IMG/VR virus record: IMGVR_UViG_3300050821_001858
Location: 1 to 64,000 of that record
Length of the DNA: 64,000 bases
Direction: 5' to 3' (one strand)
DNA from: a virus
Below are positions 58,931 to 63,035 of this stretch, in pieces (positions within the stretch are counted from its first letter, which is position 1; each line of letters opens with the position of its first letter). The notes under the pieces are model-generated. The model was given only the letters and a program-made list of their open reading frames with translations. It did no database searches and was not told the origin of the DNA. The position numbers and the translations under genes were made by a program.

Positions 58931-59958
58931 TCGTCTTTGGACGGATTAGGGCAAGCCCCCCTGAATGTGTGGGTATTAATATCAGAAAGTGTGTTATCAC
59001 AAGGTAGTGTACACTACCTACCTACCGGGAGATAGGTACGCAAGCCTATCTCCCATTTAAAATTATCAGATGTATTACAGATTGGGGGCATAGCCTCGTC
59101 AGGATAAGCCAGGGTGACTTGGTAAAAGCGGTAAGTCTTCCTACAGACCCGCACTATTAGCAATAATAGCCCATCTATGCAGGTCCGGTCTTCCCCGTGA
59201 GGGGCAATCGATGGCATCGGTTGTAAAGCAGGACGGTTAGGTAAGGTCGAAAGATAGGTTCGAGGGTAACACTGTAGAGCCAAGTCCCGAAAGGACACCT
59301 TACGTTCAAACTAACTTACTGTGTATAGATAACGGATAGTGGGATACAGAGCATGAGACTTGCAATCTAATGCGACCCGCAAAATGGAGGATAATGGCTG
59401 ACGTTAACACAGTCGGACAGCATCCAAGAATTTGGTTTAGTAGCTCGCAAGGCGAAGGACAGTTGCCGTGTTGTATTTGGTACCTCAAAAGGGTATTGAG
59501 CAACAGTCGCAGCACGTCAAGTAGGTTTCCGATAATTGAAACTAGGTGTTTCAATCTCACTGTGAATGAGATGTCGGTTGGTTCAAATCCAACTTATCAT
59601 GCAGAAAAAGCAAAGTCTGCGACTGTGTTGAATGAAAGTGGTTTAATCCTATGAGTCCTTTGGACTAACATAGGGGATTTGTTACTCGCAAGGTGACAGT
59701 CTTTGATAGCGTGATTTGTCATAGAGGGTTAGCCCCCTCGAATAGCTCGCAAGGCTAGTGGTGAAAAGCATGTCGAATAGTTCAACATGAAAGAGGTACC
59801 GCCCCCTCTATAATCAAGGCAACCATGTGACGATACTGGATAGTTGTCCAGTGGAAATCGGGGAACCTTTCTTAAATGTGCGCTCCGTCGCCGCATCCCT
59901 CGCAGGATGGAGGATAATCCCGTAAGTTGTCATGTAGAACCCGTATTCTCAGGGTTTT
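58930..59958 (+). ncRNA. GOLLD-like giant structured ncRNA
   Basis: About 1 kb without a credible ORF, many GCAA/GAAA hairpins, segments I recall as GOLLD-like (GTTGTATT..CTCAAAAGG..GCAAC; GCTCGCAAGG; terminal CCCGTATTCTCAGGG), within a tRNA cluster; boundaries approximate. Confidence 0.75.
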
Positions 59959-60088: not shown

Positions 60089-60262
60089 TAATGAAATGTA
60101 TTTTCAAACAACATCAAAAGCTATTAAGCAATGGTTACTTGATAGTAGAATATCTCTTATCTATGAAAGATATGATAACCCATTTAATGATTTTTTTCTC
60201 CGGTTATATCAAACACAGATTAATAATAATGTACATTTTGTAATTCGACAACATTTATTTAC

Positions 60263-60337
60263 GCGCGATTAACTCATTGGTAGAGTGCAACTTTGACATA
60301 GTTGAAGTAAAAGGTCCGATTCCTTTATCGCGCACCA
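60263..60337 (+). tRNA. tRNA-Val(GAC)
   Basis: Cloverleaf, CCA. Confidence 0.88.
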
Positions 60338-60341
60338 TTAT

Positions 60342-60420
60342 GGTCGGGTAGCTTAAAATATAAAGTAGCTGAAGCCTTGAAACTTCGGCAATGTAGGTGA
60401 AATCCCTACCCTGATCGCCA
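60342..60420 (+). ncRNA. tRNA-like RNA with 7-bp anticodon stem, 8-nt loop, TGAAATC T-loop
   Basis: Cloverleaf with GCCA end but non-canonical D/T loops. Confidence 0.7.
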
Positions 60421-60495
60421 ATTAAATCCTAGAGTAAGTCCCCTTTGTTTTTCGACAAGGTGAGATATAACCATTGTAGCATCTAGGATTATTAT

Positions 60496-60594
60496 GCCTC
60501 GGTAGCTTAGAAAATAGAGCGCATCCCGTTTAATATTCATATGGTGGATATTGGGAGGGGTGAGACGTAGGTGAAATACCTACCAGAGGCACCA
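60496..60594 (+). ncRNA. tRNA-like RNA with greatly extended anticodon arm
   Basis: GCCTC/GAGGC-ACCA acceptor, T-loop TGAAATA, about 40-nt anticodon arm. Confidence 0.7.
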
Positions 60595-60609
60595 ACGATA
60601 GAGGATATT

Positions 60610-60795
60610 ATGGCACGCAAATCTTTTTTGGATTGTAAACATGAGAATGTTCAAGAGTTTACGGAATGTTGTCTTGATTGTGGATATAATATTTGGACAA
60701 CAAAAAAAGAATATCTGAAAGACCTTCAGCGACAAGCTGGTGGGAAAAACGTTGAAGAAATTCGAAAGCTTGAAAAACAGCTTGGAATAGGTTAA
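60610..60795 (+). CDS. Small Cys-containing hypothetical protein
   Basis: GAGG RBS; C.H...CLDCG. Confidence 0.55.
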   Translation: MARKSFLDCKHENVQEFTECCLDCGYNIWTTKKEYLKDLQRQAGGKNVEEIRKLEKQLGIG

Positions 60796-60796
60796 T

Positions 60797-60869
60797 GCGA
60801 GGTTAGTTTAGTGGCAGAATAGGCGCTTGATAGGCGTTTGGCTCGGGTTCGATTCCCGTACTCGCACCA
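60797..60869 (+). tRNA. tRNA-Ile(GAT)
   Basis: Cloverleaf, slightly irregular acceptor, CCA. Confidence 0.8.
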
Positions 60870-61620: not shown

Positions 61621-61695
61621 GCGTCTGGACGCTGCTAGTGTGGCGACTCCCCTGTCACGGGAGCGAGCGGGGAGCGTAACCCCGTAGACGCGCCA
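61621..61695 (+). tRNA. tRNA-Asp(GTC), atypical D and T loops
   Basis: Loop CT-GTC-AC, GCCA end, T-loop AGCGTAA. Confidence 0.8.
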
Positions 61696-62944: not shown

Positions 62945-63035
62945 GCGCTTCGGTGTTGGACATGAGATGGACTTATAAACCATTTTGCAGCGGACGGCTG
63001 TATCTAACTAGGTTCGAATCCTAGGAGGCGCACCA
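62945..63035 (+). tRNA. tRNA-Ile(TAT)-like, long variable arm, minimal D arm
   Basis: GCGCTTC/GAGGCGC-ACCA, loop CT-TAT-AA, T arm CTAGG-TTCGAAT-CCTAG. Confidence 0.75.

Follow-up and report, generated by a model that had tools for sequence, protein, structure and literature searches.

Candidate non-decoding tRNA mimics with a recurrent UGAAAU T arm in the tRNA array of a T4-like phage

The prevailing view of phage tRNA genes is now that they replace host tRNAs destroyed by defence nucleases. Here we describe two neighbouring tRNA-like RNAs, E1 and E2, encoded in the tRNA array of a 64,000-nucleotide (nt) stretch of viral DNA (hereafter the window), which constitutes the first 64 kb of the 113-kb IMG/VR viral contig IMGVR_UViG_3300050821_001858 (G000; 63% complete according to CheckV, with about 40% G+C). 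Both are predicted to fold as CCA-ending cloverleaves in which the elbow has been rebuilt and the decoding end appears disabled. On balance, we lean towards considering them as selected, non-decoding tRNA mimics, members of an RNA type that recurs among phages and uses ordinary Lys-type tRNA scaffolds. The recurrent RNAs keep the tRNA body and the CCA end while the elbow and the anticodon end are altered, which points to a second, off-ribosome use of the tRNA shape.

Architecture of E1 and E2

The two RNAs and the hairpin that separates them are composed of the following elements, given in window positions; E1 and E2 were delimited from the sequence, the minimum free energy (MFE) cloverleaf and Rfam.

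60342..60420, plus strand: E1, a 79-nt CCA-ending tRNA-like RNA
60342-48 / 60410-16: acceptor stem of E1, GGUCGGG/CCUGAUC, 7 bp including two G.U pairs
60351-66: D arm of E1, GCUU-AAAAUAUA-AAGU
60368-89: arm of E1 in the anticodon position, a 7-bp stem GCUGAAG/CUUCGGC with the 8-nt loop CCUUGAAA
60393-60409: T arm of E1, GUAGG-UGAAAUC-CCUAC, then GCCA at 60417-20
60426..60489, plus strand: spacer hairpin closed by AUCCUAGA/UCUAGGAU, stem 60426-60433 / 60482-60489
60496..60594, plus strand: E2, a 99-nt CCA-ending tRNA-like RNA
60496-502 / 60584-90: acceptor stem of E2, GCCUCGG/CAGAGGC, 6/7 paired with a G6.A67 mismatch
60505-20: D arm of E2, GCUU-AGAAAAUA-GAGC
60522-60562: 41-nt arm of E2 (6 bp, a 1x1 internal loop, 12 bp and a 3-nt loop)
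60522-26 / 60558-62: anticodon stem of E2
60527-32: C32 G33 UUU A37 of E2, with G38 at 60557
60567-83: T arm of E2, GUAGG-UGAAAUA-CCUAC, then ACCA at 60591-94

E1 and E2 have in common U8-A9, a 4-bp D stem, an 8-nt A/U-rich D loop without GG, a 5-bp T stem and a T loop that starts with U54 G55 A56 A57 A58; the variable loop of E1 measures 3 nt. With the canonical tRNA (RF00005) this type of molecule shares the cloverleaf, the 7-bp acceptor, U8, A14, A21, the 5-bp T stem, the 7-nt T loop and the NCCA end, whereas G18G19, U55-C56 and the U33 7-nt anticodon loop are missing. Consequently neither RNA displays the canonical elbow, made of G18 G19 and U54 U55 C56, nor the canonical anticodon arm, with its 5-bp stem, 7-nt loop, U33 and a purine at 37. 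The cloverleaves are the MFE folds of the two molecules (z = -3.2 for E1 and -5.7 for E2), and 0 of 200 dinucleotide shuffles folded as well. Furthermore, the Rfam tRNA model aligns both from end to end, giving E1 28.2 bits, below the RF00005 gathering cut-off of 29 bits, and E2 32.2 bits once 30 nt in its anticodon loop are treated as an insertion. ARAGORN called neither of them, even at a relaxed threshold, and no Rfam family other than tRNA matched in 60200-60800 at E values up to 10. The tRNA-like module of YrlA/bacterial Y RNAs is closed at the acceptor end, its termini forming the Ro-binding stem, whereas the termini of E1 and E2 form an acceptor stem with a free NCCA.

Most of this architecture had been anticipated in a preliminary description of the same DNA. 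The acceptor stems and CCA ends, the D loops without GG, the common T arm GTAGG-TGAAAT(C/A)-CCTAC in place of TTCGA, and the 7-bp stem with an 8-nt loop in E1 are all found in the sequence, and the arm of E2, given there as about 40 nt long with an internal loop and no anticodon loop, is the 41-nt arm listed above. The stem-closed element reported between the two RNAs also exists, though it starts one base away, at 60426, and its fold surpasses shuffles only slightly (z = -2.4), 4 of 200 shuffles doing equally well. Having neither a T arm nor a CCA end, this hairpin is probably a processed spacer.

Duplication and sequence constraint

Judged by their sequences, E1 and E2 are old tandem duplicates: they share the 5' leader AUUAU (ATTAT) and a run (GGTAGCTTA / GGUAGCUUA) at a 154-nt period. 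Identity between the two copies is 5/14 in the acceptor strands (36%), where pairing has been kept, 12/16 in the D arm and 16/17 (94%) in the T arm. In other words, the divergence of the acceptor stems is compensatory, and the T arm and the 5' half of the D arm have been retained. Since a neutral duplicate with 9 of its 14 acceptor positions changed would not be expected to leave 17 adjacent bases nearly intact, either the sequence of the T arm is constrained or gene conversion has acted on the T arm alone.

The same pattern extends to the other members of the class presented below. Once six of them are aligned, 6 of the 7 acceptor pairs vary on both sides, 97% of the cells are paired and the T stem is almost invariant; in controls, slid strands reached 35-56% pairing and 0 of 500 shuffles matched the observed values. 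Moreover, in X2, a DNA contig from a second soil sample with a depth of about 4 (3.9x), E1, the spacer and the core of E2 are identical to those of the window. The preliminary description had argued for a distinct RNA class rather than decay, a view that agrees with the compensatory divergence of the acceptor stems, the kept T arm and the recurrence of this arm in tRNA-like RNAs of other phages.

Recurrence of the T arm in other phages

The pattern GTAGGTGAAATNCCTAC + N8 + CCA matches 20 IMG/VR viral contigs, and the acceptor complement lies at the expected upstream distance in 20/20. Three RNA types exist among these contigs. The molecule L069c lies within a tRNA array and is labelled tRNA-Lys(UUU) by ARAGORN; L122, a 111-nt RNA, is flanked by tRNA-Val and tRNA-Gln in a phage whose genome is complete at 306 kb; and a 69-nt family (18 contigs) forms a compact cloverleaf behind a TTGACA-17-TATAAT promoter, with compensatory changes in the middle hairpin and a paralogue in the same 160-kb genome. 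A fourth further type, a 101-nt RNA with a long variable arm, was found in a marine metagenome scan (L150/L152). The carriers tested (G000, G002 and G005) have T4-like core genes in common.

Among 185,579 prokaryote genomes (one per species), the T-arm + NCCA pattern gave 3 matches, none tRNA-like and all coding-like, which is about the number estimated for chance. A pattern joining D arm, T loop and CCA gave one match, attributable to chance, and blastn of the E1-E2 region against 50,697 phage records gave none. Covariance model R1 returned only ordinary tRNAs (34-47 bits) from eight IMG/VR relative records and no further copy from the phage's own 113 kb. In the literature no paper describing a UGAAAU T-arm class was found. 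Three features make the class searchable: the T arm GUAGG-UGAAAUN-CCUAC, the lack of GG in the D loop and a sealed R-UUU-A loop. The class escapes standard tRNA finders or receives a wrong label from them, as exemplified by ARAGORN, which gives L069c as "tRNA-Lys" and skips E1 and E2.

Several side observations were collected in these scans. The bare 17-mer T arm was discarded as a search key, being swamped by an unrelated giant-virus repeat: the 17-mer GTAGGTGAAATTCCTAC is part of a conserved element of about 90 nt (a hairpin, then gaaaaagtaagaccatc...tattgattttaca; L002-L119, e.g., L006 3640-3720), which has no relation to tRNA and recurs in roughly 90 giant-virus (GVMAG) contigs. The promoter-led compact tRNA-like RNA of 68-69 nt, present in the 18 contigs mentioned above, has a conserved UACCC pentaloop; it lies at L131 4630-4725 and twice in G005, a 160-kb T4-like phage (9505-9572 and 134824-134892), where the T loops of the paralogues are UGAAAUC and GGAAGUU. 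The array that contains L069c presents five consecutive tRNA-like RNAs (L140 1320-1720, minus strand, equivalent to G001 23716-24111): (a) has a 9-nt loop and the T loop UGCAACA; (b) is a mini RNA of about 50 nt with an acceptor, two hairpins and GCCA; (c) is L069c itself; (d) has a canonical T arm, a 34-nt D-loop insertion and a CUUAG loop, without CCA; and (e) has the T loop UGAAACA and a UAUC-capped arm.

The decoding end

A U33 seven-base anticodon loop is present in 0 of the 6 RNA types that carry the UGAAAU T arm. In L069c, the stretch U32 A33 UUU A37 A38 yields the pentaloop AUUUA on a 6-bp stem, and in L152, C32 G33 UUU A37 G38 gives a 6-bp stem with the loop GUUUA. L122 has an ACCU-GUUUA-GGGU hairpin too, but inside the D-arm region, so that the sealed pentaloop R-UUU-A occurs in two or three of the six types. 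E2 corresponds to the L152 loop (C-GUUUA...G) interrupted exactly at 37/38 by an insertion that was delimited by comparison with the intact L152 loop CGUUUAG:

60533..60556, plus strand: 24-nt hairpin insertion in E2 between A37 and G38

The 3' part of this insertion, AUAUUGGG, pairs with UUUAAUAU, burying the UUU in a helix of about 19 bp. On the predicted fold, the decoding end of E2 is disabled, its Lys-type loop C-GUUUA..G being interrupted at 37/38 by a hairpin in which the UUU is paired; that of E1 is likewise disabled, as judged from its 7-bp stem and 8-nt loop. The strain contig X2 carries 18 extra bases at 60536-60547 inside the E2 insertion (42 nt versus 24 nt), and its E2 arm refolds with the basal helix kept and the tip CUAC-GAAA-GUAG.

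Three observations made beside these arms deserve mention. A 16-mer of the E1 arm recurs in terminator-like hairpins CCCCGAAG-CCUUGAAA-CUUCGGGG-UUUU, which have the same loop and inner stem as E1 and adjoin tRNA genes in unrelated phage contigs (L290, L301, L303, L313 and L336). The L152 mimic is adjoined by a UGA-suppressor-like RNA (L152 2908-2978) with the loop CGUCAAG, in which G33 is present and the loop is sealed as GUCAA. Also next to this mimic, a tRNA bears a 37-nt hairpin inside the D loop (L152 3156-3262).

The elbow

The rebuilt elbow is well illustrated by L069c, which shows 72-78% identity to ordinary phage tRNAs and 75% to a Gordonia phage tRNA-Lys. Compared with a Phapecoctavirus tRNA having the same T stem, its differences are concentrated in the D loop (AGUUGGUA replaced by AGUUAUUA) and in the T loop (UUCGAGU replaced by UGAAAUU). 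In terms of contacts, G19-C56 becomes U19-A56 and G18/U55 becomes A18/G55, and the former exchange amounts to a natural test of which partners depend on the universal elbow. The coordinated change of D and T loops claimed in the preliminary description is thus seen in L069c against canonical tRNAs of the same backbone, but it is not universal: the D loop of L152 contains no U, and U20-A56 pairing was rejected as a general rule of the class.

A rebuilt elbow alone does not prove that a molecule is non-decoding, because odd-elbow tRNAs with normal 7-nt loops exist in the phage that encodes E1 and E2. The hallmark of the UGAAAU class is rather the rebuilt elbow combined with a disabled anticodon end.

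A possible off-ribosome role

Like the flanking tRNAs, E1 and E2 would be released when RNase P and 3' trimming process the array transcript. They would then adopt an L shape with an alternative elbow, in which the U54-A58 core of the T loop would be kept, and they would stay off the ribosome, because they lack a usable anticodon loop, carry G55/A56 and have the weak EF-Tu pairs U50-A64 and A51-U63. To tRNA-binding proteins they would present the top half of a tRNA with its CCA end, to which E2-type RNAs would add a Lys-like UUUA signature. The role that seems most likely would be the occupation of a tRNA-binding factor. Tentatively, and with low confidence, the partner might be a host defence enzyme that targets tRNA, at the anticodon (a nuclease) or at the acceptor/CCA end, and that the mimic would titrate or inhibit; a decoy role against tRNA-targeting defences is only a guess.

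It has been described that defence nucleases such as PARIS AriB read the anticodon arm and the D loop and that phages answer with variant tRNAs, among them the tRNALys/Thr/Asn of T5, resistant to PARIS AriB, and mycobacteriophage tRNAs resistant to VapC/PrrC-type enzymes (PMC12409363; PMC10264068). Like E1 and E2, these are array genes that differ from host tRNAs at the anticodon arm and D loop; unlike them, they are working decoders with 7-nt loops that replace the cleaved host tRNAs. E1 and E2, apparently unable to decode, could therefore act only as decoys or inhibitors against such nucleases, and no published mechanism of decoy or inhibitor action by phage tRNA genes was found in the literature.

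The closest published analogues of E1 and E2 are the stable RNAs RNAC (species 1) and RNAD (species 2) encoded by the T4 tRNA cluster, whose role is still unknown (PMC3014915, PMC9697503). They are also small non-decoding RNAs, located in a T4-type tRNA cluster and co-oriented with the tRNAs, and RNAC combines a tRNA-type T arm with a long hairpin. RNAC nevertheless differs in its canonical GGGUUCGAAUCCC T arm, its length of 139 nt, a fold that is not a cloverleaf and the lack of an encoded CCA; it has no UGAAAU T loop, no GG-less D loop and no Lys-type sealed loop. Indeed, once the T4 rnaC and rnaD sequences are read and folded, no sequence similarity to E1 or E2 appears and the architecture is different, which speaks against homology. 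The class described here would provide comparative material for the 50-year-old question of what RNAs of the RNAC/RNAD type do.

Another instructive case is that of the non-proteogenic (NP) tRNAGly of Staphylococcus, which act as glycine donors for the cell wall and have a U54-G55 T loop (TGC/TGT instead of TTC) without pseudouridine 55 (PMC7826273). In these molecules U54-G55, a non-G at position 19 and the pairs U50-A64/A51-U63 keep tRNAGly from EF-Tu and the ribosome (PMC7826273), and the same U54-G55 without pseudouridine 55, a position 19 that is not G and the same two weak pairs are found in E1 and E2. In contrast to the latter, the staphylococcal tRNAs have a normal UCC anticodon loop, are chromosomal, belong to staphylococci only and have a known synthetase and transferase.

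Several points weigh against regarding E1 and E2 as selected mimics. Both are candidate RNAs, delimited from sequence and predicted folds. The evidence of conservation comes from the E1/E2 paralogues, from class members selected by motif and from one low-depth strain contig (3.9x). A scan with the pattern of the E1 arm gave 82 matches, none tRNA-like, and this arm has no counterpart in the other tRNA-like RNAs. The same phage has decoding-type tRNAs with odd elbows, normal 7-nt loops and CCA (Asp GUC and Gln UUG). The genes that co-occur in the carriers are only T4-like core genes and a dCMP deaminase, and no partner protein was identified. Finally, unless it bound very tightly, a decoy acting stoichiometrically would be a poor weapon against a nuclease that works catalytically.

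Alternative explanations

One alternative is that E1 and E2 represent tRNA duplicates in decay or under neutral drift: a tRNA-Lys-like gene would have received a hairpin, the anticodon arm of its copy would have been scrambled, and both would serve at most as punctuation for RNase P processing. As decoders they would be redundant, canonical Lys(UUU), Lys(CUU), Gln and Ser tRNAs being present; the arm of E1 is confined to this phage; and tRNA loops of these phages often contain inserted hairpins, as do the D loops of the L152 tRNA mentioned above and of RNA d of the G001 array. Decay would not readily account, however, for acceptor strands that have changed at about 9 of 14 positions and still pair beside a T arm with 16 of 17 identical positions, nor for the same T arm joined to a disabled anticodon in four further RNA types, nor for a hairpin whose tip differs between strains while its base stays paired, and we consider it unlikely. 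The two RNAs might instead be non-ribosomal aminoacyl carriers, charged by a host synthetase, kept from EF-Tu and the ribosome, and donating the amino acid to a transferase. The encoded CCA and the intact acceptor/T minihelix would suit such a task, as would the UG-purine T loop, the missing G18G19 and the pairs U50-A64 / A51-U63 that match the staphylococcal NP tRNAs (PMC7826273). Furthermore, E2 and L152 combine A73 with a displayed UUU. A73 and UUU are the main identity elements of LysRS. Against charging, the UUU of E2 is base-paired, E1 has no recognisable identity set and the discriminators vary over the class (G, A, U). No class II synthetase of the LysRS/AspRS/AsnRS type was found in G000, G001, G002 or G005, Fem-type or other aminoacyl transferases not having been searched for. 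The carrier explanation is accordingly quite unlikely.

Two further proposals concern one RNA each. The preliminary description had seen in E1 a possible quadruplet or frameshift reader acting through its 8-nt loop, for example with the anticodon UUGA or with UGA plus an extra base, and an 8-nt anticodon loop is a hallmark of frameshift-suppressor tRNAs. The loop does exist in E1, but it sits on a 7-bp instead of a 5-bp stem, about two pairs too far from the elbow, and in a molecule with a non-standard elbow rather than a standard tRNA body; U33 is not at its usual place, and G55/A56 together with the weak EF-Tu pairs speak against use by the ribosome. No gene depending on such a reading was found: the downstream open reading frame (ORF) at 60610-60795 has its own Shine-Dalgarno sequence and ATG, and no Pth2 gene exists in the contig. 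This function is highly improbable for E1. For E2, the 24-nt hairpin could be conceived as a protein-dependent tRNA intron whose removal would yield an L152-type RNA. In the alignment with the L152 loop the insertion falls exactly between A37 and G38, the canonical site of archaeal and eukaryal tRNA introns; its pairing with the anticodon resembles that of eukaryal and archaeal introns, and its tip is free to differ between strains. On the other hand, the bulge-helix-bulge of those introns is absent, the fold being a continuous helix with one 1x1 loop that places the 5' junction inside the helix, and with 24 nt (42 nt in X2) the insertion is far too short for a group I intron, the catalytic core of which takes about 200 nt or more. 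Splicing endonuclease, RtcB and Rnl1 (PF01974, PF01139, PF09511) are absent from the 113 kb, which is weak evidence in a contig that is 63% complete, and a spliced E2 would keep a sealed loop without U33. The position of the insertion is a point in favour of the earlier intron proposal, which we nevertheless regard as very unlikely. More broadly, a protein-dependent pathway of non-group-I splicing, or of cutting and religation, might remove the hairpins in tRNA-shaped phage genes (E2 and the D-loop insertions of L152 and G001), an idea that seems equally doubtful. If true, hairpin removal would be a bacterial-virus counterpart of archaeal/eukaryal tRNA splicing, its product being a sealed Lys-type mimic.

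Genomic context of the array

The DNA comes from soil metagenomes. A T4-like myovirus placement is supported by the major head protein, a DnaB-like helicase, SbcCD, ribonucleotide reductase and a gp43-type DNA polymerase, the last with 44% identity to cyanomyovirus polymerases. A polymerase at 95% identity to that of the window phage is encoded on the 188-kb contig P0001, and among the IMG/VR relatives polymerase identity is at most 48%. Relatives at 57% identity are represented by contigs of 173 kb and 181 kb. The co-oriented tRNA array spans from 54.3 kb to about 72 kb, beyond the end of the window, with about 30 tRNAs called by ARAGORN. E1 and E2 lie inside this array, as shown by a canonical tRNA-Val(GAC) that ends 4 nt upstream of E1. 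Other features of this context are:

25187: amber-suppressor-type tRNA(CUA), called by ARAGORN
59461-59955: GOLLD RNA within the tRNA array, 174.5 bits
60263..60337, plus strand: canonical tRNA-Val(GAC), called by ARAGORN, 61.3 bits with the Rfam tRNA model
60610-60795: 61-codon ORF downstream of E2

The small ORFs on either side of E1 and E2 gave no informative Pfam match, and neither a promoter nor a terminator dedicated to E1 or E2 was found. Soil metatranscriptome contigs from three studies match the GOLLD RNA of the window without mismatch (59400-59940, with a depth of up to 441), and all of them end at 59917-59940, so that none reaches E1 or E2. They derive from standard libraries, which would not capture structured RNAs of 80-100 nt, and are thus uninformative on the expression of E1 and E2. 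The idea that E1 and E2 are cargo of a GOLLD cage was set aside as unsupported speculation, the other carriers scanned having no GOLLD. A tmRNA is present in each of the array-bearing carriers G000, G001, G002 and the L152 contig (4/4):

G000 91516-91878: tmRNA of the permuted type
L236 19048-19384: tmRNA
L261 5825-6172: tmRNA
L152 7804-8185: tmRNA

Finally, the array of G000 contains other atypical tRNA-like molecules. At 61621-61695 (plus strand), a 75-nt CCA-ending cloverleaf was missed both by ARAGORN (default) and at the Rfam gathering threshold; its D stem of 6 bp closes a 4-nt loop, its anticodon loop CUGUCAC (Asp GUC) is normal, and it has G73 and the non-canonical T loop AGCGUAA. It is probably the phage's only tRNA-Asp. 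Beyond the window, a CCA-ending tRNA-Gln(UUG) with the T loop GGCAGUA, likewise missed by ARAGORN at default settings, lies at G000 71625-71695. Standard tRNA finders under-count this array. Furthermore, a 91-nt CCA-ending RNA at 62945-63035 (plus strand) presents UAU within a 9-nt loop, together with a long variable arm, and two CCA-ending RNAs without a D arm (G000 69208-69288 and 70121-70203; anticodons UCG and UCU) have in common a "...GUAAAU" segment before the T arm.

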